Source of the DNA: Lytechinus pictus
Lineage: Eukaryota
Direction of reading: 5' to 3'
Assembly: GCF_037042905.1 (NCBI RefSeq)
Contig: NC_087245.1
Location: forward strand, 5,458,001 to 5,522,000
Length of the DNA: 64,000 bases
Shown: positions 21,250-49,788 of the stretch, in pieces
Position numbering within the stretch: the stretch's first letter is position 1
Layout of the letters: every line of letters begins with the position of its first letter
Made by a program: the position numbers and the translations under genes
Notes under the pieces: model-generated
Database searches by the model: none
Seen by the model: the letters and a program-made list of their open reading frames with translations, nothing else
Told to the model about the DNA's origin: nothing

Positions 21250-21282
21250 GTGTCTATGTCTAAATGCAGCTGGAGTAGAGTC

Positions 21283-21425
21283 AGCCAACAATAAGCTAGC
21301 CAACAGCAAGCCAGCCAACAGTTCCAGCCAACAATATCGCGATGTAAGATAGATCAGATACAGGATTTTGCGCACGAAGAGAAGCGTGCATGCATTCTTG
21401 TACAAATCAAACAAACGGGGTCAGG
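21283..21425 (+). repeat. Left terminal inverted repeat (143 bp) with four AGCCAACA motifs
   Basis: Reverse complement of 49384-49522, differing by 2 substitutions and one 4-bp indel. Confidence 0.95.
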
Positions 21426-21426
21426 T

Positions 21427-24400
21427 GGGGTTTCCCTTCTTTCAATTTGTAAAGAAAAACAACGGGCTAGTGCTTAAATTTTAGTAGCCCACACCCCTAT
21501 ATACTCTATGTGTTTTCGTATATTGAGGAGTAAATTTCAACTAAAAGTCCTCTTTATAAAATACAATTGGAAGATTGCTCCTGAAATATATTTTGGGTGT
21601 GTGGAGGGGGGTTTCCCTTCTTTCAATTTGTATAAAGAAAAACAACGGGCTGGTGCTTTAGTTTTAGTAGCCCACACCCCTATATACTCTAGGTTTTTTC
21701 GTGTATTGAGGAGTAAATTTCAACTAAACGTCCTCTCTATACAACACAATTGGAAGATTGCTCCTGAAATATATTTTTGGTGTGTAGAGGGGGGTTTCCC
21801 TTCTTTCAATTTGTAAAGAAAAACAAGGGGCTAGTGCCTTCGTTTAAGTAGCCCACACTCATATACATTCCTATATATTCCACGCTTTTATATATATTGA
21901 GGAATAAATTTGAACTAAAAGTCCTCTTTATAAAATACAATTGGAAGAATTGCTCCTGAAATTTATTTTGGGTGTGTGTATAGGGGGGTTTCCCTTCTTT
22001 CAATTTGTAAAGAAACACAACGGGCTAGTGCTTTAATTTTAGTAGCCCACACCCCTATATACTCTATGTTTTTTCGTATATCGAGGAGTAAATTTGAACT
22101 AAAAGTCCTCTTTATTAAATACAATTGGAAAATTGCTCCTGAAATGTATTTTGGGTGTGTGGAGGGGGGTTTCCCTTCTTTCAATTTGTAAAGAAAAACA
22201 AGGGGCTAGTGCCTTAGTTTTTGTAGCCCACACTCATATACATTCCTATATATTCCACGTTTTTATATATATTGAGGAGTAAATTTGAACTAAAAGTCCT
22301 CTTTATAAAATACAATTGGAAGATTGCTCCTGAAATATATTTTGGGTGTGTGGAGGGGGGTTTCCCTTCTTTCAATTTGTAAAGAAAAACAAGGGGCTAG
22401 TGCCTTAGTTTTTGTAGCCCACACTCATATACATTCCTATATATTCCACGTTTTTATATATATTGAGGAGTAAATTTGAACTAAAAGTCCTCTTTATAAA
22501 ATACAATTGGAAGATTGCTCCTGAAATATATTTTGGGTGTGTGGAGGGGGGTTTCCCTTCTTTCAATTTGTAAAGAAAAACAAGGGGCTAGTGCCTTCGT
22601 TTAAGTAGCCCACACTCATATACATTCCTATATATTCCACGCTTTTATATATATTGAGGAATAAATTTGAACTAAAAGTCCTCTTTATAAAATACAATTG
22701 GAAGATTGCTCCTGAAATTTATTTTGGGTGTGTGTAGGGGGGTTTCCCTTCTTTCAATTTGTAAAGAAACACAACGGGCTAGTGCTTTAATTTTAGTAGC
22801 CCACACCCCTATATACTCTATGTTTTGTCGTATATTGAGGAGTAAATTTCAACAAAAAGTCCTCTTTATAAAATACAATTGGAAGATTGCTCCTCAAATA
22901 TATTTTGGGTGTGTGTAGGGGGGTTTCCCTTCTTTCAATTTGTAAAGAAAAACAACGGGCTAGTGCTTTAGTGTTAGTAGCCCACACCCCTATATACTCT
23001 ATGTTTTTTCGTATATTGAGGAGTAAATTTGAACTAAAAGTCCTCTTTATTAAATACAATTGGAAGATTGCTCCTGAAATATATTTTGGGTGTGTAGAGG
23101 GGGGTTTCCCTTCTTTCAATTTGTAAAGAAAAACAAGGGGCTAGTGCCTTCGTTTTAGTAGCCCACACTCATATACATTCCTATATATTCCACGTTTTTA
23201 TATATTCGAGGAGTAAATTTGAACTAAAAGACCTCTTTATAAAATACAATTGGAAGATTGCTCCTGAAATTTATTTTGGGTGTGTGTAGGGGGGTTTCCC
23301 TTCTTTCAATTTGTAAAGAAAAACAACGGGCTAGTGCTTTAGTTTTAGTAGCCCACACCCCTATATACTCTATGTTTTTTCGTATATTGAGGAGTAAATT
23401 TCAACTAAAAGTCCTCTTTATAAAATACAATTGGAAGATTGCTCCTGAAATATATTTTGGGTGTGTGTAGGGGGGTTTCCCTTCTTTCAATTTGTAAAGA
23501 AAAACAAGGGGCTAGTGCCTTCGTTTAAGTAGCCCACACTCATATACATTCCTATATATTCCACGCTTTTATATATATTGAGGAATAAATTTGAACTAAA
23601 AGTCCTCTTTATAAAATACAATTGGAAGATTGCTCCTGAAATTTATTTTGGGTGTGTGTATAGGGGGGTTTCCCTTCTTTCAATTTGTAAAGAAACACAA
23701 CGGGCTAGTGCTTTAATTTTAGTAGCCCACACCCCTATATACTCTATGTTTTGTCGTATATTGACGAGTAAATTTCAACAAAAAGTCCTCTTTATAAAAT
23801 ACAATTGGAAGATTGCTCCTGAAATATATTTTGGGTGTGTGTAGGGGGGTTTCCCTTCTTTCAATTTGAAAAGAAAAACAACGGGCTAGTGCTTTAGTGT
23901 TAGTAGCCCACACCCCTATATACTCTATGTTTTTTCGTATATTGAGGAGTAAATTTGAACTAAAAGTCCTCTTTATTAAATACAATTGGAAAATTGCTCC
24001 TGAAATGTATTTTGGGTGTGTGGAGGGGGGTTTCCCTTCTTTCAATTTGTAAAGAAAAACAAGGGGCTAGTGCCTTAGTTTTTGTAGCCCACACTCATAT
24101 ACATTCCTATATATTCCACGTTTTTATATATATTGAGGAGTAAATTTGAACTAAAAGTCCTCTTTATAAAATACAATTGGAAGATTGCTCCTGAAATATA
24201 TTTTGGGTGTGTGGAGGGGGGTTTCCCTTCTTTCAATTTGTATAAAGAAAAACAACGGGCTGGTGCTTTAGTTTTAGTAGCCCACACCCCTATATACTCT
24301 AGGTTTTTTCGTGTATTGAGGAGTAAATTTCAACTAAACGTCCTCTCTATACAACACAATTGGAAGATTGCTCCTGAAATATATTTTTGGTGTGTAGAGG

Positions 24401-27400
24401 GGGGTTTCCCTTCTTTCAATTTGTAAAGAAAAACAAGGGGCTAGTGCCTTCGTTTAAGTAGCCCACACTCATATACATTCCTATATATTCCACGCTTTTA
24501 TATATATTGAGGAATAAATTTGAACTAAAAGTCCTCTTTATAAAATACAATTGGAAGAATTGCTCCTGAAATTTATTTTGGGTGTGTGTATAGGGGGGTT
24601 TCCCTTCTTTCAATTTGTAAAGAAACACAACGGGCTAGTGCTTTAATTTTAGTAGCCCACACCCCTATATACTCTATGTTTTGTCGTATATTGAGGAGTA
24701 AATTTCAACAAAAAGTCCTCTTTATAAAATACAATTGGAAGATTGCTCCTGAAATATATTTTGGGTGTGTGTAGGGGGGTTTCCCTTCTTTCAATTTGAA
24801 AAGAAAAACAACGGGCTAGTGCTTTAGTGTTAGTAGCCCACACCCCTATATACTCTATGTTTTTTCGTATATTGAGGAGTAAATTTGAACTAAAAGTCCT
24901 CTTTATTAAATACAATTGGAAAATTGCTCCTGAAATGTATTTTGGGTGTGTGGAGGGGGGTTTCCCTTCTTTCAATTTGTAAAGAAAAACAAGGGGCTAG
25001 TGCCTTAGTTTTTGTAGCCCACACTCATATACATTCCTATATATTCCACGTTTTTATATATATTGAGGAGTAAATTTGAACTAAAAGTCCTCTTTATAAA
25101 ATACAATTGGAAGATTGCTCCTGAAATATATTTTGGGTGTGTGGAGGGGGGTTTCCCTTCTTTCAATTTGTAAAGAAAAACAAGGGGCTAGTGCCTTCGT
25201 TTAAGTAGCCCACACTCATATACATTCCTATATATTCCACGCTTTTATATATATTGAGGAATAAATTTGAACTAAAAGTCCTCTTTATAAAATACAATTG
25301 GAAGATTGCTCCTGAAATTTATTTTGGGTGTGTGTAGGGGGGTTTCCCTTCTTTCAATTTGTAAAGAAACACAACGGGCTAGTGCTTTAATTTTAGTAGC
25401 CCACACCCCTATATACTCTATGTTTTGTCGTATATTGAGGAGTAAATTTCAACAAAAAGTCCTCTTTATAAAATACAATTGGAAGATTGCTCCTCAAATA
25501 TATTTTGGGTGTGTGTAGGGGGGTTTCCCTTCTTTCAATTTGTAAAGAAAAACAACGGGCTAGTGCTTTAGTGTTAGTAGCCCACACCCCTATATACTCT
25601 ATGTTTTTTCGTATATTGAGGAGTAAATTTGAACTAAAAGTCCTCTTTATTAAATACAATTGGAAGATTGCTCCTGAAATATATTTTGGGTGTGTAGAGG
25701 GGGGTTTCCCTTCTTTCAATTTGTAAAGAAAAACAAGGGGCTAGTGCCTTCGTTTTAGTAGCCCACACTCATATACATTCCTATATATTCCACGTTTTTA
25801 TATATTCGAGGAGTAAATTTGAACTAAAAGACCTCTTTATAAAATACAATTGGAAGATTGCTCCTGAAATTTATTTTGGGTGTGTGTAGGGGGGTTTCCC
25901 TTCTTTCAATTTGTAAAGAAAAACAACGGGCTAGTGCTTTAGTTTTAGTAGCCCACACCCCTATATACTCTATGTTTTTTCGTATATTGAGGAGTAAATT
26001 TGAACTAAAAGTCCTCTTTATAAAATACAATTGGAAGATTGCTCCTGAAATGTATTTTGGGTGTGTGGAGGGGGGTTTCCCTTCTTTCAATTTGTAAAGA
26101 AAAACAAGGGGCTAGTGCCTTAGTTTTTGTAGCCCACACTCATATACATTCCTATATATTCCACGTTTTTATATATATTGAGGAGTAAATTTGAACTAAA
26201 AGTCCTCTTTATAAAATACAATTGGAAGATTGCTCCTGAAATATATTTTGGGTGTGTGGAGGGGGGTTTCCCTTCTTTCAATTTGTATAAAGAAAAACAA
26301 CGGGCTGGTGCTTTAGTTTTAGTAGCCCACACCCCTATATACTCTAGGTTTTTTCGTGTATTGAGGAGTAAATTTCAACTAAACGTCCTCTCTATACAAC
26401 ACAATTGGAAGATTGCTCCTGAAATATATTTTTGGTGTGTAGAGGGGGGTTTCCCTTCTTTCAATTTGTAAAGAAAAACAAGGGGCTAGTGCCTTCGTTT
26501 AAGTAGCCCACACTCATATACATTCCTATATATTCCACGCTTTTATATATATTGAGGAATAAATTTGAACTAAAAGTCCTCTTTATAAAATACAATTGGA
26601 AGAATTGCTCCTGAAATTTATTTTGGGTGTGTGTATAGGGGGGTTTCCCTTCTTTCAATTTGTAAAGAAACACAACGGGCTAGTGCTTTAATTTTAGTAG
26701 CCCACACCCCTATATACTCTATGTTTTGTCGTATATTGAGGAGTAAATTTCAACAAAAAGTCCTCTTTATAAAATACAATTGGAAGATTGCTCCTGAAAT
26801 ATATTTTGGGTGTGTGTAGGGGGGTTTCCCTTCTTTCAATTTGAAAAGAAAAACAACGGGCTAGTGCTTTAGTGTTAGTAGCCCACACCCCTATATACTC
26901 TATGTTTTTTCGTATATTGAGGAGTAAATTTGAACTAAAAGTCCTCTTTATTAAATACAATTGGAAAATTGCTCCTGAAATGTATTTTGGGTGTGTGGAG
27001 GGGGGTTTCCCTTCTTTCAATTTGTAAAGAAAAACAAGGGGCTAGTGCCTTAGTTTTTGTAGCCCACACTCATATACATTCCTATATATTCCACGTTTTT
27101 ATATATATTGAGGAGTAAATTTGAACTAAAAGTCCTCTTTATAAAATACAATTGGAAGATTGCTCCTGAAATATATTTTGGGTGTGTGGAGGGGGGTTTC
27201 CCTTCTTTCAATTTGTAAAGAAAAACAAGGGGCTAGTGCCTTCGTTTAAGTAGCCCACACTCATATACATTCCTATATATTCCACGCTTTTATATATATT
27301 GAGGAATAAATTTGAACTAAAAGTCCTCTTTATAAAATACAATTGGAAGATTGCTCCTGAAATTTATTTTGGGTGTGTGTAGGGGGGTTTCCCTTCTTTC

Positions 27401-30268
27401 AATTTGTAAAGAAACACAACGGGCTAGTGCTTTAATTTTAGTAGCCCACACCCCTATATACTCTATGTTTTGTCGTATATTGAGGAGTAAATTTCAACAA
27501 AAAGTCCTCTTTATAAAATACAATTGGAAGATTGCTCCTCAAATATATTTTGGGTGTGTGTAGGGGGGTTTCCCTTCTTTCAATTTGTAAAGAAAAACAA
27601 CGGGCTAGTGCTTTAGTGTTAGTAGCCCACACCCCTATATACTCTATGTTTTTTCGTATATTGAGGAGTAAATTTGAACTAAAAGTCCTCTTTATTAAAT
27701 ACAATTGGAAGATTGCTCCTGAAATATATTTTGGGTGTGTAGAGGGGGGTTTCCCTTCTTTCAATTTGTAAAGAAAAACAAGGGGCTAGTGCCTTCGTTT
27801 TAGTAGCCCACACTCATATACATTCCTATATATTCCACGTTTTTATATATTCGAGGAGTAAATTTGAACTAAAAGACCTCTTTATAAAATACAATTGGAA
27901 GATTGCTCCTGAAATTTATTTTGGGTGTGTGTAGGGGGGTTTCCCTTCTTTCAATTTGTAAAGAAAAACAACGGGCTAGTGCTTTAGTTTTAGTAGCCCA
28001 CACCCCTATATACTCTATGTTTTTTCGTATATTGAGGAGTAAATTTCAACTAAAAGTCCTCTTTATAAAATACAATTGGAAGATTGCTCCTGAAATATAT
28101 TTTGGGTGTGTGTAGGGGGGTTTCCCTTCTTTCAATTTGTAAAGAAAAACAAGGGGCTAGTGCCTTCGTTTAAGTAGCCCACACTCATATACATTCCTAT
28201 ATATTCCACGCTTTTATATATATTGAGGAATAAATTTGAACTAAAAGTCCTCTTTATAAAATACAATTGGAAGATTGCTCCTGAAATTTATTTTGGGTGT
28301 GTGTATAGGGGGGTTTCCCTTCTTTCAATTTGTAAAGAAACACAACGGGCTAGTGCTTTAATTTTAGTAGCCCACACCCCTATATACTCTATGTTTTGTC
28401 GTATATTGAGGAGTAAATTTCAACAAAAAGTCCTCTTTATAAAATACAATTGGAAGATTGCTCCTGAAATATATTTTGGGTGTGTGTAGGGGGGTTTCCC
28501 TTCTTTCAATTTGAAAAGAAAAACAACCGGCTAGTGCTTTAGTGTTAGTAGCCCACACCCCTATATACTCTATGTTTTTTCGTATATTGAGTAGTAAATT
28601 TGAACTAAAAGTCCTCTTTATTAAATACAATTGGAAAATTGCTCCTGAAATGTATTTTGGGTGTGTGGAGGGGGGTTTCCCTTCTTTCAATTTGTAAAGA
28701 AAAACAAGGGGCTAGTGCCTTAGTTTTTGTAGCCCACACTCATATACATTCCTATATATTCCACGTTTTTATATATATTGAGGAGTAAATTTGAACTAAA
28801 AGTCCTCTTTATAAAATACAATTGGAAGATTGCTCCTGAAATATATTTTGGGTGTGTGGAGGGGGGTTTCCCTTCTTTCAATTTGTATAAAGAAAAACAA
28901 CGGGCTGGTGCTTTAGTTTTAGTAGCCCACACCCCTATATACTCTAGGTTTTTTCGTGTATTGAGGAGTAAAATTCAACTAAACGTCCTCTCTATACAAC
29001 ACAATTGGAAGATTGCTCCTGAAATATATTTTTGGTGTGTAGAGGGGGGTTTCCCTTCTTTCAATTTGTAAAGAAAAACAAGGGGCTAGTGCCTTCGTTT
29101 AAGTAGCCCACACTCATATACATTCCTATATATTCCACGCTTTTATATATATTGAGGAATAAATTTGAACTAAAAGTCCTCTTTATAAAATACAATTGGA
29201 AGAATTGATCCTGAAATTTATTTTGGGTGTGTGTATAGGGGGGTTTCCCTTCTTTCAATTTGTAAAGAAACACAACGGGCTAGTGCTTTAATTTTAGTAG
29301 CCCACACCCCTATATACTCTATGTTTTGTCGTATATTGAGGAGTAAATTTCAACAAAAAGTCCTCTTTATAAAATACAATTGGAAGATTGCTCCTGAAAT
29401 ATATTTTGGGTGTGTGTAGGGGGGTTTCCCTTCTTTCAATTTGAAAAGAAAAACAACGGGCTAGTGCTTTAGTGTTAGTAGCCCACACCCCTATATACTC
29501 TATGTTTTTTCGTATATTGAGGAGTAAATTTGAACTAAAAGTCCTCTTTATTAAATACAATTGGAAAATTGCTCCTGAAATGTATTTTGGGTGTGTGGAG
29601 GGGGGTTTCCCTTCTTTCAATTTGTAAAGAAAAACAAAGGGCTAGTGCCTTAGTTTTTGTAGCCCACACTCATATACATTCATATATATTCCACGTTTTT
29701 ATATATATTGAGGAGTAAATTTGAACTAAAAGTCCTCTTTATAAAATACAATTGGAAGATTGCTCCTGAAATATATTTTGGGTTTGTGGAGGGGGGTTTC
29801 CCTTCTTTCAATTTGTAAAGAAAAACAAGGGGCTAGTGCCTTCGTTTAAGTAGCCCACACTCATATACATTCCTATATATTCCACGTTTTTATATATATT
29901 GAGGAGTAAATTTGAACTAAAAGTCCTCTTTATAAAATACAATTGGAAGATTGCTCCTGAAATATATTTTGGGTGTGTGGAGGGGGGTTTCCCTTCTTTC
30001 AATTTGTAAAGAAACACAACGGGCTAGTGCTTTAATTTTAGTAGCCCACACCCCTATATACTCTATGTTTTGTCGTATATTGAGGAGTAAATTTCAACAA
30101 AAAGTCCTCTTTATAAAATACAATTGGAAGATTGCTCCTGAAATATATTTTGGGTGTGTGTAGGGGGGTTTCCCTTCTTTCAATTTGTAAAGAAAAACAA
30201 CGGGCTAGTGCTTTAGTGTTAGTAGCCCTTACCCCTATATACTCCAGTTTTAAGAATATTGAGGAGTA
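21427..30268 (+). repeat. Satellite array 1: ~47 monomers of type A (~181-184 bp) and type B (~190-193 bp) in higher-order repeats
   Basis: Diagnostic variants recur at 2600/2045-bp steps and at a 4645-bp period (e.g. ORF-track pairs 22706/27351, 23578/28223, 24416/29061). Confidence 0.97.
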
Positions 30269-31059
30269 TGTAAAAAAAAATTTCCTGATAAATGAAGAGA
30301 GCGATCGTATTTTTGAAGGGGGTGACCCTTTTTATTCAATTTTACAGTGCGTATCAATAAAAACGGGACAGTTATGAAACGTCGATCAAAATACCCTTTT
30401 GAATTATGATGTCTATATTTTGATGTTCATAGATGCTCTGAAATCTTATCGATCAAATTCAATATTTTTTTTTTAATTTGTTCATGCTTGAGTGCACACG
30501 AGATGGTTTTGTCGGGGGTTCAAATATAGGACTGCGCTAAGTGGTCGGAAATGAAGTGTATGGTTATAAGACTTCTTGCCAATCAGCAGATTATTTTTGC
30601 CATAGTTTTCATATTTTGGTCGCAAATGTCACGTACAAAGCTGTATATTTACTTTACTTTTTCATTTTAATAAATTATTTTTTTAGCAATGAACATTCTT
30701 TAATACTAACATTTTTTGTCAATCAAGAATGATCCAATTTGTAATTAGGAATTTGAGAGCTTGTAATCAATTCAAACCATTTTATTTTATGCAACAAGCA
30801 GATAAATCCTTTTCTGTTAGAATTGATAATTTAATATCCTATCTAACACACAATTATATATTTTTTTTTAACCCACCATGGGCATTTATTATATACATAA
30901 TTGAACATTCAAAATCACATCACATGTTTACATATTTCTTTTTCAAACAAATATTCCAAATTTAGTTCTCGACAATCTTTTCCTGTTTTGTTTCTTATAA
31001 GTATACATTTATAAATGCACCAAAAAGCAATTAATAATTGCTTTTTGGTGCATTTATAA

Positions 31060-32176
31060 TGATTTGAATAAAGTACAGCAAATTCACCCTATTAACAACT
31101 AACAATTAGGGGTTTGGTGAATGATAACATCTGTTCTCGTTGTGAAGTAGAGGAAGATATTCATTACGCTTTCATTTCTTGTGATTTGAACAAACCATTC
31201 TTTGAATTTTTGAAAAAAATAATCCAGCAAATATTTCATAAAGATTTAGAAATCAATCATTAAAATTTTGTTTAAACATGAAGAAGACGAAAAATTAGTT
31301 TTACTTCTGACTATCGCACTTTGTTGCATTCACAAAGTCATCGTTTTAAGAAACATGAGTGGAAACGAAAAGAGAGGCAATCCCAGAAGGAAAAACCAGT
31401 ACGGCTGGACCAGTTACACCAGTAAAATTTAATTGGTAACTCTGGAAATTGGAACAAAATATACTTGTCTGCTATAAGCTGGACCAGTAATTTTTTGATG
31501 GTCAAATTTAACTGGACCAGTATAATTTTAACTGGACCAGTAACAAATATACTGGTCAAACTAACTGGACCAGTAATAATTTTACTGGTCCAATTGAACT
31601 GGACCAGTACAAATTGTGGTGGACCAGTAATTTTACTGGTCAAATTATACTGGACCAGTACAATTTTTGCTGGACCAGTAATAATTTTACTGGTCAAATT
31701 AAACTGGACCAGTACAATTTTTGCTGGACCAGTAATAATTTTACTGGTCAAATTAAACTGGGCCAGTACAATTTTTGCTGGACCAGTAATAAATTACTGG
31801 TCAAATTAAACTGGACCAGTACAATTTTGGCTGGACCAGTAATAATTTTACTGGTCAAATTAAACTGGATCTGAAATTCATATTTTTAAGAGAAATAGAA
31901 AGAAGAATAGAAATGAAACCTCGGTACAGGAAAATATATGTTCATCTACCCAAAGAAATTATGGAATATATTTGAAACACTGTGAATTTCATGTTTCCAT
32001 TTAATGTTTTTTTAAATTTATGTTAAAGATTACGTAAGATTATTGCACAATTACATTATTATGTAAATTTTTGTTTTAATTTCTGAAATTTCCTGTAATG
32101 TCATGTATGCTCATTTTCATAATGTGTTATGTTGTTTTGTTGTAAATAAAATCCTCTAATTGAGGCCAAAAAAAAA
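31060..32176 (+). mobile_element. 5'-truncated L1/Tx1-type LINE 3' end
   Basis: GLVNDNICSRCEVEEDIHYAFISC resembles the ORF2 C-terminal zinc knuckle; the frame resumes after the insert (LKFIFLREIERRIEMK...EYI*); AATAAA ~32145 and A-tail ~32168-32176. Confidence 0.7.
31382..31868 (+). mobile_element. EnSpm/CACTA-like deletion derivative made of ~54-bp CTGGACCAGT repeats
   Basis: AT|CCCAGAAGGAAAAA ... CTGG|AT; 2-bp duplication; removing it restores the LINE frame RGN-LKF. Confidence 0.65.
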
Positions 32177-32689
32177 TGCAATTAGGCATTTCTTGGGTTG
32201 ACTTTTATTAATTATTAAATATGCAATCCTAAAAAATAACTTTTTTTTTAAGTAACTAAATAAGTTTGTGAGTTAATTTTGAAACATAATTTTAAAAACA
32301 ATGGCAAAGATAATGAAAATGTTAAGTGGAAGTTTACTGCTTAGCAGGAAGTCTAATGACCATATATTTTGTTTCCTCTCATTTCTGCACAAACCTATTT
32401 TTGAACCCTTGACAAATCTCGTGTTTGTTCAAGCATGAACAAAATTCATTTCTCAAAATTGCATTTAAAATATAAGGTTTCAGAGCATCTATAAACATCA
32501 AAATATAGACATCATAATTTGAAAAGAATTTTTGATCGACTTTTCAAAACTGTCCAGTTTTTATTGATACGCACTGTATTGATAGAATGAAGGGGCTTGT
32601 CCTTTGATAAGGTTCACTGGCCCTCTCTTATTATTTGCGCCCTTTTAAAAAGTATTTCTTTTTTACTATTGAGGGGTGAATAAAAATGA

Positions 32690-33310
32690 AAGTATTCTTG
32701 ACTGAAAAGCAAAAGTGAAGATTGCCCCTGAAAAAAATTTCGGGTGTTTGTGGAGGGGAGTTTTCCTTCTGTCAATTCGTTTATAAAGGGGGGGGGGGGG
32801 GGTTAGTGCCTACATTTCAGTAGCCCACACTCCTATATATTATTTATATCCTTTTTTTGTCCTTATTTTAGTGTTGACAGTAATTGGGGATTAAATAAAA
32901 TTAAAAAACCTCCTGATAGCAAACGGAAATATAGCTCCTAAAAGACCATTCGGTTGTTTGTAGGAAGTTTATTAAACCTCATTTCAATTTTTGGATACTA
33001 AGAAGGGCTAGGGCTGATTTTTTTTAGTTGCCCGCACTCCTATAATATACTCGATGTTTTAAAAATATTGAGAATTATATAATGGAAAAAGATTGCCTGT
33101 TGAAAGCAAATAGAAAGATTGCTCCTGGTAGAGCTTTCAGTTGTTTGTAGGGGGTTTCACATATTTGCAATCTAGGGTTACAAACAAGGGGCTAGTCCTA
33201 AAGTAAAAAAAAAATAGTGATCCCACCCTCCTGGGAAGATTGATCCATAAAGAAATTTCTGGTATGTGGAGCGAGTTCCCTAATTCCTTCAATACGTTTA
33301 TATTAACAAG
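32690..33310 (+). repeat. Three to four highly decayed satellite monomers
   Basis: GATTGCCCCTGAAA..GGGTGTTTGTGGAGGGG, GTAGCCCACACTCCTATATA, GATTGCTCCTG..GTAGGGGGTTTC, AACAAGGGGCTAGT and GGAAGATTGATCC match monomer landmarks. Confidence 0.8.
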
Positions 33311-36800: not shown

Positions 36801-39800
36801 ATCTTCCAATTGTATTTTATAAAGAGGACTTTTAGTTGAAATTTACTCCTCAATATACGAAAAAACATAGAGTATATAGGGGTGTGGGCTACTAAAACTA
36901 AAGCACTAGCCCGTTGTTTTTCTTTACAAATTGAAAGAAGGGAAACCCCCCTACACACACCCAAAATATATTTCAGGAGCAATCTTCCAATTGTATTTTA
37001 TAAAGAGGACTTTTAGTTGAAATTTACTCCTCAATATACGAAAAAACATAGAGTATATAGGGGTGTGGGCTACTAAAACTAAAGCACTAGCCCGTTGTTT
37101 TTCTTTACAAATTGAAAGAAGGGAAACCCCCCTACACACACCCAAAATATATTTCAGGAGCAATCTTCCAATTGTATTTTATAAAGAGGACTTTTAGTTG
37201 AAATTTACTCCTCAATATACGAAAAAACATAGAGTATATAGGGGTGTGGGCTACTAAAACTAAAGCACTAGCCCGTTGTTTTTCTTTACAAATTGAAAGA
37301 AGGGAAACCCCCCTACACACACCCAAAATATATTTCAGGAGCAATCTTCCAATTGTATTTTATAAAGAGGACTTTTAGTTGAAATTTACTCCTCAATATA
37401 CGAAAAAACATAGAGTATATAGGGGTGTGGGCTACTAAAACTAAAGCACTAGCCCGTTGTTTTTCTTTACAAATTGAAAGAAGGGAAACCCCCCTACACA
37501 CACCCAAAATATATTTCAGGAGCAATCTTCCAATTGTATTTTATAAAGAGGACTTTTAGTTGAAATTTACTCCTCAATATACGAAAAAACATAGAGTATA
37601 TAGGGGTGTGGGCTACTAAAACTAAAGCACTAGCCCGTTGTTTTTCTTTACAAATTGAAAGAAGGGAAACCCCCCTACACACACCCAAAATATATTTCAG
37701 GAGCAATCTTCCAATTGTATTTTATAAAGAGGACTTTTAGTTGAAATTTACTCCTCAATATACGAAAAAACATAGAGTATATAGGGGTGTGGGCTACTAA
37801 AACTAAAGCACTAGCCCGTTGTTTTTCTTTACAAATTGAAAGAAGGGAAACCCCCCTACACACACCCAAAATATATTTCAGGAGCAATCTTCCAATTGTA
37901 TTTTATAAAGAGGACTTTTAGTTGAAATTTACTCCTCAATATACGAAAAAACATAGAGTATATAGGGGTGTGGGCTACTAAAACTAAAGCACTAGCCCGT
38001 TGTTTTTCTTTACAAATTGAAAGAAGGGAAACCCCCCTACACACACCCAAAATATATTTCAGGAGCAATCTTCCAATTGTATTTTATAAAGAGGACTTTT
38101 AGTTGAAATTTACTCCTCAATATACGAAAAAACATAGAGTATATAGGGGTGTGGGCTACTAAAACTAAAGCACTAGCCCGTTGTTTTTCTTTACAAATTG
38201 AAAGAAGGGAAACCCCCCTACACACACCCAAAATATATTTCAGGAGCAATCTTCCAATTGTATTTTATAAAGAGGACTTTTAGTTGAAATTTACTCCTCA
38301 ATATACGAAAAAACATAGAGTATATAGGGGTGTGGGCTACTAAAACTAAAGCACTAGCCCGTTGTTTTTCTTTACAAATTGAAAGAAGGGAAACCCCCCT
38401 ACACACACCCAAAATATATTTCAGGAGCAATCTTCCAATTGTATTTTATAAAGAGGACTTTTAGTTGAAATTTACTCCTCAATATACGAAAAAACATAGA
38501 GTATATAGGGGTGTGGGCTACTAAAACTAAAGCACTAGCCCGTTGTTTTTCTTTACAAATTGAAAGAAGGGAAACCCCCCTACACACACCCAAAATATAT
38601 TTCAGGAGCAATCTTCCAATTGTATTTTATAAAGAGGACTTTTAGTTGAAATTTACTCCTCAATATACGAAAAAACATAGAGTATATAGGGGTGTGGGCT
38701 ACTAAAACTAAAGCACTAGCCCGTTGTTTTTCTTTACAAATTGAAAGAAGGGAAACCCCCCTACACACACCCAAAATATATTTCAGGAGCAATCTTCCAA
38801 TTGTATTTTATAAAGAGGACTTTTAGTTGAAATTTACTCCTCAATATACGAAAAAACATAGAGTATATAGGGGTGTGGGCTACTAAAACTAAAGCACTAG
38901 CCCGTTGTTTTTCTTTACAAATTGAAAGAAGGGAAACCCCCCTACACACACCCAAAATATATTTCAGGAGCAATCTTCCAATTGTATTTTATAAAGAGGA
39001 CTTTTAGTTGAAATTTACTCCTCAATATACGAAAAAACATAGAGTATATAGGGGTGTGGGCTACTAAAACTAAAGCACTAGCCCGTTGTTTTTCTTTACA
39101 AATTGAAAGAAGGGAAACCCCCCTACACACACCCAAAATATATTTCAGGAGCAATCTTCCAATTGTATTTTATAAAGAGGACTTTTAGTTGAAATTTACT
39201 CCTCAATATACGAAAAAACATAGAGTATATAGGGGTGTGGGCTACTAAAACTAAAGCACTAGCCCGTTGTTTTTCTTTACAAATTGAAAGAAGGGAAACC
39301 CCCCTACACACACCCAAAATATATTTCAGGAGCAATCTTCCAATTGTATTTTATAAAGAGGACTTTTAGTTGAAATTTACTCCTCAATATACGAAAAAAC
39401 ATAGAGTATATAGGGGTGTGGGCTACTAAAACTAAAGCACTAGCCCGTTGTTTTTCTTTACAAATTGAAAGAAGGGAAACCCCCCTACACACACCCAAAA
39501 TATATTTCAGGAGCAATCTTCCAATTGTATTTTATAAAGAGGACTTTTAGTTGAAATTTACTCCTCAATATACGAAAAAACATAGAGTATATAGGGGTGT
39601 GGGCTACTAAAACTAAAGCACTAGCCCGTTGTTTTTCTTTACAAATTGAAAGAAGGGAAACCCCCCTACACACACCCAAAATATATTTCAGGAGCAATCT
39701 TCCAATTGTATTTTATAAAGAGGACTTTTAGTTGAAATTTACTCCTCAATATACGAAAAAACATAGAGTATATAGGGGTGTGGGCTACTAAAACTAAAGC

Positions 39801-42800
39801 ACTAGCCCGTTGTTTTTCTTTACAAATTGAAAGAAGGGAAACCCCCCTACACACACCCAAAATATATTTCAGGAGCAATCTTCCAATTGTATTTTATAAA
39901 GAGGACTTTTAGTTGAAATTTACTCCTCAATATACGAAAAAACATAGAGTATATAGGGGTGTGGGCTACTAAAACTAAAGCACTAGCCCGTTGTTTTTCT
40001 TTACAAATTGAAAGAAGGGAAACCCCCCTACACACACCCAAAATATATTTCAGGAGCAATCTTCCAATTGTATTTTATAAAGAGGACTTTTAGTTGAAAT
40101 TTACTCCTCAATATACGAAAAAACATAGAGTATATAGGGGTGTGGGCTACTAAAACTAAAGCACTAGCCCGTTGTTTTTCTTTACAAATTGAAAGAAGGG
40201 AAACCCCCCTACACACACCCAAAATATATTTCAGGAGCAATCTTCCAATTGTATTTTATAAAGAGGACTTTTAGTTGAAATTTACTCCTCAATATACGAA
40301 AAAACATAGAGTATATAGGGGTGTGGGCTACTAAAACTAAAGCACTAGCCCGTTGTTTTTCTTTACAAATTGAAAGAAGGGAAACCCCCCTACACACACC
40401 CAAAATATATTTCAGGAGCAATCTTCCAATTGTATTTTATAAAGAGGACTTTTAGTTGAAATTTACTCCTCAATATACGAAAAAACATAGAGTATATAGG
40501 GGTGTGGGCTACTAAAACTAAAGCACTAGCCCGTTGTTTTTCTTTACAAATTGAAAGAAGGGAAACCCCCCTACACACACCCAAAATATATTTCAGGAGC
40601 AATCTTCCAATTGTATTTTATAAAGAGGACTTTTAGTTGAAATTTACTCCTCAATATACGAAAAAACATAGAGTATATAGGGGTGTGGGCTACTAAAACT
40701 AAAGCACTAGCCCGTTGTTTTTCTTTACAAATTGAAAGAAGGGAAACCCCCCTACACACACCCAAAATATATTTCAGGAGCAATCTTCCAATTGTATTTT
40801 ATAAAGAGGACTTTTAGTTGAAATTTACTCCTCAATATACGAAAAAACATAGAGTATATAGGGGTGTGGGCTACTAAAACTAAAGCACTAGCCCGTTGTT
40901 TTTCTTTACAAATTGAAAGAAGGGAAACCCCCCTACACACACCCAAAATATATTTCAGGAGCAATCTTCCAATTGTATTTTATAAAGAGGACTTTTAGTT
41001 GAAATTTACTCCTCAATATACGAAAAAACATAGAGTATATAGGGGTGTGGGCTACTAAAACTAAAGCACTAGCCCGTTGTTTTTCTTTACAAATTGAAAG
41101 AAGGGAAACCCCCCTACACACACCCAAAATATATTTCAGGAGCAATCTTCCAATTGTATTTTATAAAGAGGACTTTTAGTTGAAATTTACTCCTCAATAT
41201 ACGAAAAAACATAGAGTATATAGGGGTGTGGGCTACTAAAACTAAAGCACTAGCCCGTTGTTTTTCTTTACAAATTGAAAGAAGGGAAACCCCCCTACAC
41301 ACACCCAAAATATATTTCAGGAGCAATCTTCCAATTGTATTTTATAAAGAGGACTTTTAGTTGAAATTTACTCCTCAATATACGAAAAAACATAGAGTAT
41401 ATAGGGGTGTGGGCTACTAAAACTAAAGCACTAGCCCGTTGTTTTTCTTTACAAATTGAAAGAAGGGAAACCCCCCTACACACACCCAAAATATATTTCA
41501 GGAGCAATCTTCCAATTGTATTTTATAAAGAGGACTTTTAGTTGAAATTTACTCCTCAATATACGAAAAAACATAGAGTATATAGGGGTGTGGGCTACTA
41601 AAACTAAAGCACTAGCCCGTTGTTTTTCTTTACAAATTGAAAGAAGGGAAACCCCCCTACACACACCCAAAATATATTTCAGGAGCAATCTTCCAATTGT
41701 ATTTTATAAAGAGGACTTTTAGTTGAAATTTACTCCTCAATATACGAAAAAACATAGAGTATATAGGGGTGTGGGCTACTAAAACTAAAGCACTAGCCCG
41801 TTGTTTTTCTTTACAAATTGAAAGAAGGGAAACCCCCCTACACACACCCAAAATATATTTCAGGAGCAATCTTCCAATTGTATTTTATAAAGAGGACTTT
41901 TAGTTGAAATTTACTCCTCAATATACGAAAAAACATAGAGTATATAGGGGTGTGGGCTACTAAAACTAAAGCACTAGCCCGTTGTTTTTCTTTACAAATT
42001 GAAAGAAGGGAAACCCCCCTACACACACCCAAAATATATTTCAGGAGCAATCTTCCAATTGTATTTTATAAAGAGGACTTTTAGTTGAAATTTACTCCTC
42101 AATATACGAAAAAACATAGAGTATATAGGGGTGTGGGCTACTAAAACTAAAGCACTAGCCCGTTGTTTTTCTTTACAAATTGAAAGAAGGGAAACCCCCC
42201 TACACACACCCAAAATATATTTCAGGAGCAATCTTCCAATTGTATTTTATAAAGAGGACTTTTAGTTGAAATTTACTCCTCAATATACGAAAAAACATAG
42301 AGTATATAGGGGTGTGGGCTACTAAAACTAAAGCACTAGCCCGTTGTTTTTCTTTACAAATTGAAAGAAGGGAAACCCCCCTACACACACCCAAAATATA
42401 TTTCAGGAGCAATCTTCCAATTGTATTTTATAAAGAGGACTTTTAGTTGAAATTTACTCCTCAATATACGAAAAAACATAGAGTATATAGGGGTGTGGGC
42501 TACTAAAACTAAAGCACTAGCCCGTTGTTTTTCTTTACAAATTGAAAGAAGGGAAACCCCCCTACACACACCCAAAATATATTTCAGGAGCAATCTTCCA
42601 ATTGTATTTTATAAAGAGGACTTTTAGTTGAAATTTACTCCTCAATATACGAAAAAACATAGAGTATATAGGGGTGTGGGCTACTAAAACTAAAGCACTA
42701 GCCCGTTGTTTTTCTTTACAAATTGAAAGAAGGGAAACCCCCCTACACACACCCAAAATATATTTCAGGAGCAATCTTCCAATTGTATTTTATAAAGAGG

Positions 42801-45800
42801 ACTTTTAGTTGAAATTTACTCCTCAATATACGAAAAAACATAGAGTATATAGGGGTGTGGGCTACTAAAACTAAAGCACTAGCCCGTTGTTTTTCTTTAC
42901 AAATTGAAAGAAGGGAAACCCCCCTACACACACCCAAAATATATTTCAGGAGCAATCTTCCAATTGTATTTTATAAAGAGGACTTTTAGTTGAAATTTAC
43001 TCCTCAATATACGAAAAAACATAGAGTATATAGGGGTGTGGGCTACTAAAACTAAAGCACTAGCCCGTTGTTTTTCTTTACAAATTGAAAGAAGGGAAAC
43101 CCCCCTACACACACCCAAAATATATTTCAGGAGCAATCTTCCAATTGTATTTTATAAAGAGGACTTTTAGTTGAAATTTACTCCTCAATATACGAAAAAA
43201 CATAGAGTATATAGGGGTGTGGGCTACTAAAACTAAAGCACTAGCCCGTTGTTTTTCTTTACAAATTGAAAGAAGGGAAACCCCCCTACACACACCCAAA
43301 ATATATTTCAGGAGCAATCTTCCAATTGTATTTTATAAAGAGGACTTTTAGTTGAAATTTACTCCTCAATATACGAAAAAACATAGAGTATATAGGGGTG
43401 TGGGCTACTAAAACTAAAGCACTAGCCCGTTGTTTTTCTTTACAAATTGAAAGAAGGGAAACCCCCCTACACACACCCAAAATATATTTCAGGAGCAATC
43501 TTCCAATTGTATTTTATAAAGAGGACTTTTAGTTGAAATTTACTCCTCAATATACGAAAAAACATAGAGTATATAGGGGTGTGGGCTACTAAAACTAAAG
43601 CACTAGCCCGTTGTTTTTCTTTACAAATTGAAAGAAGGGAAACCCCCCTACACACACCCAAAATATATTTCAGGAGCAATCTTCCAATTGTATTTTATAA
43701 AGAGGACTTTTAGTTGAAATTTACTCCTCAATATACGAAAAAACATAGAGTATATAGGGGTGTGGGCTACTAAAACTAAAGCACTAGCCCGTTGTTTTTC
43801 TTTACAAATTGAAAGAAGGGAAACCCCCCTACACACACCCAAAATATATTTCAGGAGCAATCTTCCAATTGTATTTTATAAAGAGGACTTTTAGTTGAAA
43901 TTTACTCCTCAATATACGAAAAAACATAGAGTATATAGGGGTGTGGGCTACTAAAACTAAAGCACTAGCCCGTTGTTTTTCTTTACAAATTGAAAGAAGG
44001 GAAACCCCCCTACACACACCCAAAATATATTTCAGGAGCAATCTTCCAATTGTATTTTATAAAGAGGACTTTTAGTTGAAATTTACTCCTCAATATACGA
44101 AAAAACATAGAGTATATAGGGGTGTGGGCTACTAAAACTAAAGCACTAGCCCGTTGTTTTTCTTTACAAATTGAAAGAAGGGAAACCCCCCTACACACAC
44201 CCAAAATATATTTCAGGAGCAATCTTCCAATTGTATTTTATAAAGAGGACTTTTAGTTGAAATTTACTCCTCAATATACGAAAAAACATAGAGTATATAG
44301 GGGTGTGGGCTACTAAAACTAAAGCACTAGCCCGTTGTTTTTCTTTACAAATTGAAAGAAGGGAAACCCCCCTACACACACCCAAAATATATTTCAGGAG
44401 CAATCTTCCAATTGTATTTTATAAAGAGGACTTTTAGTTGAAATTTACTCCTCAATATACGAAAAAACATAGAGTATATAGGGGTGTGGGCTACTAAAAC
44501 TAAAGCACTAGCCCGTTGTTTTTCTTTACAAATTGAAAGAAGGGAAACCCCCCTACACACACCCAAAATATATTTCAGGAGCAATCTTCCAATTGTATTT
44601 TATAAAGAGGACTTTTAGTTGAAATTTACTCCTCAATATACGAAAAAACATAGAGTATATAGGGGTGTGGGCTACTAAAACTAAAGCACTAGCCCGTTGT
44701 TTTTCTTTACAAATTGAAAGAAGGGAAACCCCCCTACACACACCCAAAATATATTTCAGGAGCAATCTTCCAATTGTATTTTATAAAGAGGACTTTTAGT
44801 TGAAATTTACTCCTCAATATACGAAAAAACATAGAGTATATAGGGGTGTGGGCTACTAAAACTAAAGCACTAGCCCGTTGTTTTTCTTTACAAATTGAAA
44901 GAAGGGAAACCCCCCTACACACACCCAAAATATATTTCAGGAGCAATCTTCCAATTGTATTTTATAAAGAGGACTTTTAGTTGAAATTTACTCCTCAATA
45001 TACGAAAAAACATAGAGTATATAGGGGTGTGGGCTACTAAAACTAAAGCACTAGCCCGTTGTTTTTCTTTACAAATTGAAAGAAGGGAAACCCCCCTACA
45101 CACACCCAAAATATATTTCAGGAGCAATCTTCCAATTGTATTTTATAAAGAGGACTTTTAGTTGAAATTTACTCCTCAATATACGAAAAAACATAGAGTA
45201 TATAGGGGTGTGGGCTACTAAAACTAAAGCACTAGCCCGTTGTTTTTCTTTACAAATTGAAAGAAGGGAAACCCCCCTACACACACCCAAAATATATTTC
45301 AGGAGCAATCTTCCAATTGTATTTTATAAAGAGGACTTTTAGTTGAAATTTACTCCTCAATATACGAAAAAACATAGAGTATATAGGGGTGTGGGCTACT
45401 AAAACTAAAGCACTAGCCCGTTGTTTTTCTTTACAAATTGAAAGAAGGGAAACCCCCCTACACACACCCAAAATATATTTCAGGAGCAATCTTCCAATTG
45501 TATTTTATAAAGAGGACTTTTAGTTGAAATTTACTCCTCAATATACGAAAAAACATAGAGTATATAGGGGTGTGGGCTACTAAAACTAAAGCACTAGCCC
45601 GTTGTTTTTCTTTACAAATTGAAAGAAGGGAAACCCCCCTACACACACCCAAAATATATTTCAGGAGCAATCTTCCAATTGTATTTTATAAAGAGGACTT
45701 TTAGTTGAAATTTACTCCTCAATATACGAAAAAACATAGAGTATATAGGGGTGTGGGCTACTAAAACTAAAGCACTAGCCCGTTGTTTTTCTTTACAAAT

Positions 45801-48800
45801 TGAAAGAAGGGAAACCCCCCTACACACACCCAAAATATATTTCAGGAGCAATCTTCCAATTGTATTTTATAAAGAGGACTTTTAGTTGAAATTTACTCCT
45901 CAATATACGAAAAAACATAGAGTATATAGGGGTGTGGGCTACTAAAACTAAAGCACTAGCCCGTTGTTTTTCTTTACAAATTGAAAGAAGGGAAACCCCC
46001 CTACACACACCCAAAATATATTTCAGGAGCAATCTTCCAATTGTATTTTATAAAGAGGACTTTTAGTTGAAATTTACTCCTCAATATACGAAAAAACATA
46101 GAGTATATAGGGGTGTGGGCTACTAAAACTAAAGCACTAGCCCGTTGTTTTTCTTTACAAATTGAAAGAAGGGAAACCCCCCTACACACACCCAAAATAT
46201 ATTTCAGGAGCAATCTTCCAATTGTATTTTATAAAGAGGACTTTTAGTTGAAATTTACTCCTCAATATACGAAAAAACATAGAGTATATAGGGGTGTGGG
46301 CTACTAAAACTAAAGCACTAGCCCGTTGTTTTTCTTTACAAATTGAAAGAAGGGAAACCCCCCTACACACACCCAAAATATATTTCAGGAGCAATCTTCC
46401 AATTGTATTTTATAAAGAGGACTTTTAGTTGAAATTTACTCCTCAATATACGAAAAAACATAGAGTATATAGGGGTGTGGGCTACTAAAACTAAAGCACT
46501 AGCCCGTTGTTTTTCTTTACAAATTGAAAGAAGGGAAACCCCCCTACACACACCCAAAATATATTTCAGGAGCAATCTTCCAATTGTATTTTATAAAGAG
46601 GACTTTTAGTTGAAATTTACTCCTCAATATACGAAAAAACATAGAGTATATAGGGGTGTGGGCTACTAAAACTAAAGCACTAGCCCGTTGTTTTTCTTTA
46701 CAAATTGAAAGAAGGGAAACCCCCCTACACACACCCAAAATATATTTCAGGAGCAATCTTCCAATTGTATTTTATAAAGAGGACTTTTAGTTGAAATTTA
46801 CTCCTCAATATACGAAAAAACATAGAGTATATAGGGGTGTGGGCTACTAAAACTAAAGCACTAGCCCGTTGTTTTTCTTTACAAATTGAAAGAAGGGAAA
46901 CCCCCCTACACACACCCAAAATATATTTCAGGAGCAATCTTCCAATTGTATTTTATAAAGAGGACTTTTAGTTGAAATTTACTCCTCAATATACGAAAAA
47001 ACATAGAGTATATAGGGGTGTGGGCTACTAAAACTAAAGCACTAGCCCGTTGTTTTTCTTTACAAATTGAAAGAAGGGAAACCCCCCTACACACACCCAA
47101 AATATATTTCAGGAGCAATCTTCCAATTGTATTTTATAAAGAGGACTTTTAGTTGAAATTTACTCCTCAATATACGAAAAAACATAGAGTATATAGGGGT
47201 GTGGGCTACTAAAACTAAAGCACTAGCCCGTTGTTTTTCTTTACAAATTGAAAGAAGGGAAACCCCCCTACACACACCCAAAATATATTTCAGGAGCAAT
47301 CTTCCAATTGTATTTTATAAAGAGGACTTTTAGTTGAAATTTACTCCTCAATATACGAAAAAACATAGAGTATATAGGGGTGTGGGCTACTAAAACTAAA
47401 GCACTAGCCCGTTGTTTTTCTTTACAAATTGAAAGAAGGGAAACCCCCCTACACACACCCAAAATATATTTCAGGAGCAATCTTCCAATTGTATTTTATA
47501 AAGAGGACTTTTAGTTGAAATTTACTCCTCAATATACGAAAAAACATAGAGTATATAGGGGTGTGGGCTACTAAAACTAAAGCACTAGCCCGTTGTTTTT
47601 CTTTACAAATTGAAAGAAGGGAAACCCCCCTACACACACCCAAAATATATTTCAGGAGCAATCTTCCAATTGTATTTTATAAAGAGGACTTTTAGTTGAA
47701 ATTTACTCCTCAATATACGAAAAAACATAGAGTATATAGGGGTGTGGGCTACTAAAACTAAAGCACTAGCCCGTTGTTTTTCTTTACAAATTGAAAGAAG
47801 GGAAACCCCCCTACACACACCCAAAATATATTTCAGGAGCAATCTTCCAATTGTATTTTATAAAGAGGACTTTTAGTTGAAATTTACTCCTCAATATACG
47901 AAAAAACATAGAGTATATAGGGGTGTGGGCTACTAAAACTAAAGCACTAGCCCGTTGTTTTTCTTTACAAATTGAAAGAAGGGAAACCCCCCTACACACA
48001 CCCAAAATATATTTCAGGAGCAATCTTCCAATTGTATTTTATAAAGAGGACTTTTAGTTGAAATTTACTCCTCAATATACGAAAAAACATAGAGTATATA
48101 GGGGTGTGGGCTACTAAAACTAAAGCACTAGCCCGTTGTTTTTCTTTACAAATTGAAAGAAGGGAAACCCCCCTACACACACCCAAAATATATTTCAGGA
48201 GCAATCTTCCAATTGTATTTTATAAAGAGGACTTTTAGTTGAAATTTACTCCTCAATATACGAAAAAACATAGAGTATATAGGGGTGTGGGCTACTAAAA
48301 CTAAAGCACTAGCCCGTTGTTTTTCTTTACAAATTGAAAGAAGGGAAACCCCCCTACACACACCCAAAATATATTTCAGGAGCAATCTTCCAATTGTATT
48401 TTATAAAGAGGACTTTTAGTTGAAATTTACTCCTCAATATACGAAAAAACATAGAGTATATAGGGGTGTGGGCTACTAAAACTAAAGCACTAGCCCGTTG
48501 TTTTTCTTTACAAATTGAAAGAAGGGAAACCCCCCTACACACACCCAAAATATATTTCAGGAGCAATCTTCCAATTGTATTTTATAAAGAGGACTTTTAG
48601 TTGAAATTTACTCCTCAATATACGAAAAAACATAGAGTATATAGGGGTGTGGGCTACTAAAACTAAAGCACTAGCCCGTTGTTTTTCTTTACAAATTGAA
48701 AGAAGGGAAACCCCCCTACACACACCCAAAATATATTTCAGGAGCAATCTTCCAATTGTATTTTATAAAGAGGACTTTTAGTTGAAATTTACTCCTCAAT

Positions 48801-49136
48801 ATACGAAAAAACATAGAGTATATAGGGGTGTGGGCTACTAAAACTAAAGCACTAGCCCGTTGTTTTTCTTTACAAATTGAAAGAAGGGAAACCCCCCTAC
48901 ACACACCCAAAATATATTTCAGGAGCAATCTTCCAATTGTATTTTATAAAGAGGACTTTTAGTTGAAATTTACTCCTCAATATACGAAAAAACATAGAGT
49001 ATATAGGGGTGTGGGCTACTAAAACTAAAGCACTAGCCCGTTGTTTTTCTTTACAAATTGAAAGAAGGGAAACCCCCCTACACACACCCAAAATATATTT
49101 CAGGAGCAATCTTCCAATTGTATTTTATAAAGAGGA
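33815..49136 (-). repeat. Satellite array 2: ~85 nearly identical 181-bp monomers, inverted relative to array 1
   Basis: Exact 181-bp period (84 ORF copies from 33874 to 48897); past the diverged first partial unit I saw only four SNVs (34223, 34284, 34549, 35860). Confidence 0.99.
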
Positions 49137-49383
49137 GATTCATCACCTCAAACAGCAAAATAGCCCTAATCCTTCCGCCAGTCAAAATATAGTCCAAAAT
49201 TTGTAATATTTCTTTCCAATTTGGGAAAAGGAAGTTCAGTAATTACCAAAAATAGAATCAGTGTTAGATGGAAAATCATATGCATACACTTTGTCAATCA
49301 GCAATATCAAAAAAAAAAAAATAGCGATGGGTTGGCTCGAATGAATATCTATGGCCTGCCACTAGAGATTAGGCCTGTGTAGC

Positions 49384-49522
49384 CCTGACCCCGTTTGTTT
49401 GATTTGTACAAGAATGCACGCTTCTCTTCGTGCGCAAAATCCTGTATCTGATCTATCTTATATCGCGATATTGTTGGCTGGAACTGTTGGCTGGCTTGCT
49501 GTTGGCTGGCTTATTGTTGGCT
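49384..49522 (-). repeat. Right terminal inverted repeat (139 bp)
   Basis: Reverse complement of 21283-21425. Confidence 0.95.
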
Positions 49523-49788
49523 CACTTGACATAGGCCTAAATGCACGGTGGACTCCTGGCCGGAGCTCCCTGGGTTAGGCTCCAGTAGACAGGAATAACC
49601 GTCGTTTCTGGGGATTTATTTAACAATTTCTGACATTTTACTATTGTATTACTATTGGTGAGTGGAGCCAACGTAGTTCAGCGGAACAACCGAAATACAG
49701 AGACTGTCTGAAGTGTGAAGCTTTTGGTCTCGGCTCTATCTAGTACCGGGCTGTACTAAGTAATACGTATGGCAGTGTATCCTATTGC

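Follow-up and report, generated by a model that had tools for sequence, protein, structure and literature searches.

A 28-kb genomic segment of the sea urchin Lytechinus pictus, at positions 21269-49536 of the window studied here (the whole 64-kb stretch NC_087245.1:5,458,001-5,522,000), is in all probability a member of a foldback DNA transposon family that is young, non-autonomous and about 41 copies strong; we put the probability of this reading at about 0.88. The foldback class itself is already known. What the family adds to it is a private satellite carried as cargo and an insertion pattern linked, at a fixed offset, to a motif in the target. An initial annotation, made from the letters of the window, had read the segment as a non-autonomous foldback element. 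That reading is now supported by a whole family of related copies, by their target-site duplications, by their shared anatomy and by a core that holds no transposase.

Structure of the window copy

We re-read the coordinates of both termini and of the flanking 9-mers, and all were correct; chance comes nowhere near explaining such a structure. The inverted repeats, their 14-nt outer ends and the enclosing CTAAATGCA, as initially annotated, are borne out in position and in their differences: 2 substitutions and one 4-bp indel separate 21283-21425 from 49384-49522. From left to right, the element and its immediate surroundings consist of the following parts.

21260..21268, + strand: left 9-bp target-site duplication, CTAAATGCA; homology to 29 other copies begins immediately inside it, at 21269
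21269..21282, + strand: L-type terminus; the window reads GCTGGAGTAGAGTC, the family majority GCCGGAGTAGAGTC
21283..21425, + strand: left subterminal inverted repeat, 143 bp, with four AGCCAACA repeats at 13-15-bp spacing in 21283-21340
21427..30268, + strand: left 181-bp satellite array, 8.8 kb, 47.6 units, 88% matches, with higher-order blocks (Tandem Repeats Finder)
30269..33816, + strand: conserved non-array core ("middle segment"), 3.5 kb, 92-98% identical to other copies
30343-30586 / 32337-32578: internal 240-bp inverted duplication of the core
31479-31869: 54-bp tandem repeat of the core
about 32667-33199: degenerate satellite units of the core
33817..49136, - strand: right 181-bp satellite array in inverted orientation, 15.3 kb, 84.6 units, 99% matches (Tandem Repeats Finder)
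49137..49383, - strand: R-side-specific segment, 247 bp, non-satellite, separating right array and right subterminal repeat
49384..49522, - strand: right subterminal inverted repeat, carrying AGCCAACA repeats like the left one
49523..49536, - strand: R-type terminus, reading GCCTATGTCAAGTG inward
49537..49545, + strand: right 9-bp target-site duplication, CTAAATGCA, in direct orientation relative to the left copy
49560..49567, + strand: target-side motif CCGGAGCT; its CCGG (49560-49563) lies 14 nt past the duplication and 24-27 nt from the element end, the arrangement that the family favours at its insertion sites

The two ends of the element differ. Compared as an inverted pair, the outer 14 nt of the window copy match at 7/14 positions, and the family-majority L and R sequences at 8/14. 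Two changes are private to the window copy: a C>T at base 3 of the L terminus (GCTGG for GCCGG) and a 4-bp insertion near 21384 in the left repeat, which is the indel mentioned above. The subterminal AGCCAACA repeats have a 15-bp period according to Tandem Repeats Finder, and we presume them to be binding sites of the transposase. These repeats and the 247-bp segment are additions to the initial annotation.

The annotated arrangement of two satellite arrays in opposite orientation around a 3.5-kb spacer devoid of transposase agrees with the output of Tandem Repeats Finder and with scans for open reading frames (ORFs) and Pfam families. The left array is additionally scored with a period of 372. 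The right array, with 85 units at 99% identity, must have grown locally, and its 99% matches indicate that this was recent. The core also contains (AC)n. It has no ORF of at least 152 amino acids, its longest stop-to-stop frame (151 amino acids) spanning the tandem repeat, and no Pfam family scored above cut-off in the four frames scanned; lacking a transposase in its core, the window copy is therefore non-autonomous. A candidate zinc-knuckle remnant of a long interspersed nuclear element ORF2 at 31096-31263 is unsupported, as it gave no Pfam match above cut-off.

A family of convergent ends

We searched the Lytechinus pictus assembly (812 Mb, 368 contigs) for further copies. With the left end as the query, 40 matches were scored at 93-100% identity: 34 were L-type and 6 R-type, the latter aligning only from query base 20. 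All 30 of the L ends that we fetched share the start base (window 21269) and lead into satellite, and their flanks are mutually unrelated except for scattered dispersed repeats. The right-end query returned 33 R-type ends with the terminus GCCTATGTCAAGTG. Pattern searches gave 77 matches for the subterminal region, against 0 in the reversed control, and 74 for the terminus, against 1 in the control; no other element type with these termini was found in the assembly by the latter search.

The pattern matches pair up convergently, each pair joining an L to an R terminus within a single contig. Complete pairs number 39, so that copies do come as inverted pairs around the satellite, the genome-wide arrangement that the initial annotation had proposed to look for. 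Adding two unpaired ends (C9:8.96 Mb and C3:67.55 Mb), the family amounts to approximately 41 copies and occupies about 40 loci on at least 17 contigs, or ~0.8 Mb.

The smallest complete copy measures 3,155 bp and the largest 54,674 bp; the median is 18.1 kb, and together they sum to 792 kb. Copies vary chiefly in the length of their arrays. The plan of the window copy is kept in all four short full copies examined (8.4-9.6 kb): R end, 247-bp segment (partial in one of them), array, core, inverted array and L end. Their cores are all 92-98% identical to window 30269-33816. Across 30 copies each, L ends are on average 98.8% and R ends 96.8% identical, which is why we consider the family young. 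In its smallest member (C14:23506759-23509913, 3.15 kb), two 1.5-kb satellite arms form a near-perfect hairpin. This copy has lost neither terminus, retaining one L and one R, and is devoid of both the core and the 247-bp segment.

That 247-bp segment stands, whole or in part, beside 33/33 R ends among those listed. It is also a member of a separate dispersed repeat family with 1848 first-look candidates, and is found without the satellite elsewhere, for instance at one locus that holds two of them 1.45 kb apart.

Target-site duplications and empty sites

Both flanks are available for 22 elements. In 19 of them the 9-mers on the two sides are identical, and they differ from one element to another; the 3.15-kb hairpin copy has an exact 9-bp duplication of its own, CCCGACGAA. 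Since the 9-mers are copy-specific, a point that the initial annotation had proposed to check, CTAAATGCA is a sequence of the target and not of the element. Identical 9-mers at distant L ends had pointed to giant inversions or alternative transposition as a candidate explanation. Once the R ends were paired, each site proved complete and equipped with its own duplication, and this candidate was discarded.

Empty sites, also sought at the suggestion of the initial annotation, were found for another copy, at C3:76.1 Mb. The flank of this copy belongs to a dispersed repeat, represented by at least 153 first-look candidates that are 90-99% identical. All four unoccupied members that we fetched read ...ACTTCCGGTGTCGCAACCTTGT-TTATATAGG-GCCTTG, with a single 9-mer and then unique DNA. 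In three occupied members of the same repeat, TTATATAGG adjoins the element, which is present in both orientations. Both junctions were read at C3:76.1 Mb (order R..L) and at C20:13.07 Mb (order L..R), with TTATATAGG on each side; at C3:79.46 Mb it stands at the L junction, the one junction read. The downstream flanks differ among the three occupied members. The empty sites are paralogous, and at least two independent insertions took place at the same nucleotide.

This landing repeat (C3:76125497-76125946) is a recurrent target of the foldback family, having received 3 of about 41 copies. On the other strand, its end reads CAAGGC-CCTATATAA-N14-CCGGAAGT, that is, a TATA-like box and then an ETS-like site. 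Neither an ORF nor an Rfam match turned up in its last 1.5 kb.

The satellite as transposon cargo

A 1.8-kb array piece from another copy aligns colinearly, at 89-98%, to the arrays of many copies; the arrays are therefore inherited with the element and not built anew at each site. All 100 of the scored satellite matches fall inside listed family members, for 39 of the 72 first-look candidates scored, which bears out the proposal that the element carries and seeds arrays. The 72 first-look candidates fit approximately two arrays per element. Judged from the 39 scored candidates, the 181-bp satellite appears private to the family. Found only inside the elements, it would therefore be planted as a new pair of inverted arrays by each transposition. 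The description of the satellite as nucleosome-sized is a statement of its length only.

A target motif at a fixed distance

Read in the direction of the element, 20 of 60 flanks (9/30 L and 11/30 R) have a CCGG whose first base is exactly 27 nt outside the element end; the count is 18 of 58 independent flanks once two paralogues of one site are dropped. Over 2000 controls in which every flank was rotated by a random amount, positional counts peaked at 8, with a mean of 4.75. CCGG at -27 leads all position-specific 4-mers, and those ranking next to it are pieces of this motif that overlap one another. The consensus, ACTTCCGGY, also holds at columns outside the selection, with A at -31 in 13/18 and T at -29 in 14/18. 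Its reverse complement is RCCGGAAGT, which we take to be the class I ETS site.

In 15 of the 22 pairs one side, and one only, shows the motif or something close to it: the side of the R end 8 times and that of the L end 7 times. The close variants counted were CTTCCGC, CTTCCTG and CCGG at -28 with a 10-bp duplication. Nowhere in the 64-kb window does the exact 8-mer ACTTCCGG occur. On the side opposite the motif, CTTG occurs within 9 nt past the duplication at 5/15 motif-bearing sites, against a background of 2.2% per interval, a comparison made post hoc.

A fixed offset cannot come from selection after insertion; it reflects the capture of the target. We tentatively propose, at somewhat less than even odds, that integration is positioned to the base pair by ACTTCCGGY lying 14 nt from the staggered cut, via either a module of the transposase or a tether to an ETS factor, and so delivers kilobases of the private, nucleosome-length satellite nearby. 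The element's own L terminus, GCCGGAGT, falls short of the motif by one base, a likeness which hints that the module by which the transposase binds element ends may also read the target.

Mobilising enzyme and proposed mechanism

Mutator elements make 9-11-bp duplications; the present ones are of 9 bp in 19/22 pairs, with one pair fitting 10 bp. On the side of the enzyme, the initial annotation had recommended a search for a Mutator-like element (MULE) transposase with the same ends. No such DDE transposase came out of the terminus search, and the one MULE locus fetched (C4:3.10 Mb), out of 17 MULE-domain matches in the assembly, is unrelated in its ends. The inverted repeats of the window copy are near-identical over 143 bp, and the 14 nt outside them match at 8/14 positions in the family majority; MULE repeats are long and near-identical and reach the very ends. 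Most MULE groups, and Rehavkus, are listed with 9-bp duplications in Table 1 of PMC6446971, and foldback elements with 8-10-bp duplications are usually assigned to Mutator according to PMC4079207, in the part of each source available. The 9-bp duplication thus suggests a resemblance to Mutator/MULE by this one feature alone, not membership. A search for AGCCAACA-N(4-9)-AGCCAACA gave 260 matches; among the 100 listed, 7 are isolated singles outside the family ends and the rest lie in them.

The MULE locus itself (C4:3097446-3100130) encodes an intact 894-amino-acid frame with a MULE transposase domain and, by eye, a SWIM-like C-terminal CxC...CxH. This could be an autonomous MULE, or else a gene that has been domesticated.

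Galileo, of the P superfamily, makes 7-8-bp duplications, which the 9 bp found here do not fit. Helitrons and Helentrons leave no target-site duplication and have asymmetric ends with a 3' hairpin; the present family shows 9-bp duplications and paired inverted ends.

In the mechanism that we envisage, a DDE transposase supplied in trans would bind the AGCCAACA repeats, cut at the GCC termini and open the target with a 9-bp stagger, a length that suggests a Mutator-like enzyme. Either the enzyme or a host factor bound to it would recognise the ACTTCCGG motif and thereby fix the position of the cut. After insertion, arrays might lengthen or shorten by unequal exchange, slippage or gap repair, and the 3.2-kb core-less hairpin copy would be a deletion derivative.

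Alternative explanations

The transposase could belong outside Mutator, for instance to Merlin or to an undescribed family, the element being foldback-like only in its shape. Merlin makes 8-9-bp duplications, no MULE with these ends emerged from the terminus search or from the one locus fetched of the 17, and an 8/14 match over the outer 14 nt is unlike the long inverted repeats typical of MULEs. Against this stand the 9-bp duplications attributed to most MULE groups and to Rehavkus in the available part of PMC6446971, and the usual placement in Mutator of foldback elements with 8-10-bp duplications, as stated in that of PMC4079207; overall, we find a transposase from outside Mutator rather unlikely. 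A tether to a host ETS-family factor at promoters, in place of direct recognition by the transposase, would also account for a motif at a fixed distance. It draws on the match of ACTTCCGGY to the reverse complement of what we take to be the ETS site, RCCGGAAGT, and on the thrice-hit repeat, where the TATA-like 9-mer CCTATATAA lies 14 nt from CCGGAAGT. The base composition of the flanks is in line with it as well: the GC content is 50% in the first 50 bp adjoining the element, where CpG is undepleted, then 42% in the next 50 bp and ~38% beyond. However, no coding exon was seen in 60 flanks of 1.5 kb, the remaining duplicated 9-mers are not TATA-like, and RNA reads show no start sites, in data swamped by dispersed repeats. 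The near-motif GCCGGAGT at the L terminus fits direct recognition by the transposase instead, and we regard the promoter tether as improbable.

Two further explanations concern the element as a whole. Because long inverted arrays of 99% identity are difficult to assemble, the array lengths given here may be in error; reads were aligned over the right junction and its flank. A satellite falsely folded back during assembly, or a segmental duplication followed by inversion, is nevertheless very hard to reconcile with 39 independent copies that keep one order of parts within unique flanks, with 9-bp duplications specific to the copy and with empty sites among paralogues. The least probable of all is a non-autonomous carrier of satellite-like repeats of Helitron/Helentron type: rolling-circle elements leave no duplication, and here a 9-bp target duplication accompanies paired inverted ends. 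Invertebrate Helentron derivatives do carry tandem repeats, as in oysters (PMC7492417, in its available part).

Returning to the foldback transposon with motif-linked insertion, several observations weigh against one or another part of that reading. Regarding the window copy, its private C>T in the L terminus means that it may no longer be mobile, and its own insertion would follow from the duplication and the family pattern, not from an empty allele. Regarding the enzyme, the terminus pattern retrieves only the 74 ends of the family itself, so that both the superfamily and a cut-and-paste mode are presumptive; neither AGCCAACA nor matching inverted repeats occur at the MULE locus of C4:3.10 Mb. 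With 39 of the 72 satellite candidates scored, a stray array outside the family may exist.

The insertion sites also raise difficulties. Three of the 22 pairs have no exact 9-mer: one matches at 7/9, one fits a 10-bp duplication by our reading and one has an altered R end. About a third of the sites have no motif. A promoter context is unsupported, given that none of 60 flank ORFs (at least 90 amino acids, from 60 flanks of 1.5 kb) matches a host protein domain and that the GC-rich zone is less than 100 bp wide. Pfam returned for these ORFs only low-complexity matches and one reverse transcriptase, and Rfam, at gathering thresholds, nothing in 12 flanking loci. Finally, two pairs of unrelated sites share their 9-mer without homology of the flanks: TACCGACCG is duplicated at two C3 sites, and AAATAATGG on C7 and C3, with 8/9 on one side of the C3 site. 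The chance probability of one such shared 9-mer among 23 known duplications is about 0.002. Simple random choice of targets fails to explain these cases.

Comparison with known systems

Transposons of the foldback class have long inverted arms of tandem repeats with variable length, and the family follows them in this, with arrays of 8.8 and 15.3 kb in the window and copies of 3.2-54.7 kb. Copy-specific duplications (19/22 exact) and empty sites (a single 9-mer in 4/4 empty paralogues) are another trait in common. Most copies in the class are non-coding, as is the core here.

Repeat-armed foldback transposons have been known since the 1980s, sea urchins included. The TU elements of Strongylocentrotus purpuratus were reportedly described as such by Liebermann et al. 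in 1983 (Nature 306:342) and by Hoffman-Liebermann et al. in 1985 (Mol Cell Biol). Our family resembles TU in its sea urchin host and in a modular build: each inverted arm has an outer domain followed by an inner domain of repeats, and the common middle segment may be deleted. The outer domain of TU is made of short (about 15-bp) tandem repeats; the AGCCAACA repeats have a 15-bp period too, in a comparison by description and not by sequence. We know of no TU element with multi-kilobase arms of a 181-bp satellite, a fixed asymmetry of L and R termini or motif-linked targeting.

FB of Drosophila melanogaster makes a 9-bp duplication, and its arm repeats, of 10-31 bp, reach the termini. In contrast, a unique 157-bp end precedes the 181-bp units of the present family, and the two termini differ. 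Variable-length arms of tandem repeats and a mostly non-coding content are nonetheless shared with both FB and Tm1 of root-knot nematodes (PMC3169594, in its available part).

Tetris of Drosophila virilis is likewise non-autonomous, with tandem repeats in long inverted arms and a link between transposon and satellite. As described in the available part of PMC4079207, it makes 8-10-bp duplications, no transposase was found for it, and it was placed in Mutator by the length of its duplication. Three structurally complete copies are given there, as opposed to 39 here. The repeats of Tetris also form a separate emerging satellite, whereas all scored matches of ours lie inside elements, and no target motif is described in that part of the source.

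As for targeting, the likeness lies with more distant systems, in which insertion occurs at a set distance in base pairs from a recognised sequence, in either orientation of the element. Tn7 inserts at a fixed offset at attTn7 via TnsD, and Ty3 does so at the start sites of RNA polymerase III. The former is a bacterial transposon and the latter a long terminal repeat retrotransposon, and the targeting proteins of both are known; the present element is eukaryotic and of cut-and-paste type. A literature search on natural fixed-distance targeting by eukaryotic DNA transposons turned up, among the papers listed, only reviews, integration-site profiling and engineered-targeting work.

Sequence around the insertion

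We aligned one RNA run and three contig sets to 49137-56900 at 85% likeness. The result is dominated by dispersed repeats, with 92% of the RNA reads continuing into unlike sequence; in these repeat-swamped data no piece bridges 49384-49545 and no signal of an empty site appears. A candidate 5' exon at 49560-49660 ending at a GT donor is unsupported by the same reads and was set aside, and no tRNA-like gene was detected by ARAGORN within 49500-51000. Numerous RNA reads and contigs align rightward from about 49586 or 49656 and diverge leftward; another dispersed repeat therefore begins some 40-110 bp past the insertion on its right side.

Farther to the right, 55536-55929 is a tandem repeat of TACCGTGGTAC-like 11-mers with 72-bp and 155-bp periods. 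Similar strings, (T)ACCGGTA(C), recur in many flanks of the foldback copies. Open frames at 56497-56856, 59512-59763 and 63380-63577, all on the + strand, resemble exons of a + strand gene, with low RNA depth; the first of them contains MPPPASDEFF... At the other end of the window, positions 1-2000 have 51% GC, against about 34% elsewhere, and include a 169-bp unit repeated twice (471-803).

Implications

As cases of a satellite existing purely as the cargo of a transposon go, this family is unusually clean. It therefore allows dispersal by transposition to be separated from the local growth of arrays, which shows in copies of 3 to 55 kb and in the 85 units at 99% identity of one arm of the window copy. 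Since the copies are young, insertion polymorphism and changes in array length could be followed in populations. If the proposed positioning by ACTTCCGGY is true, the family would be an animal system in which DNA integration is naturally guided by a motif. Were the protein that recognises the motif to be found, it would reveal the way in which a DDE-type element directs its integration by a motif.

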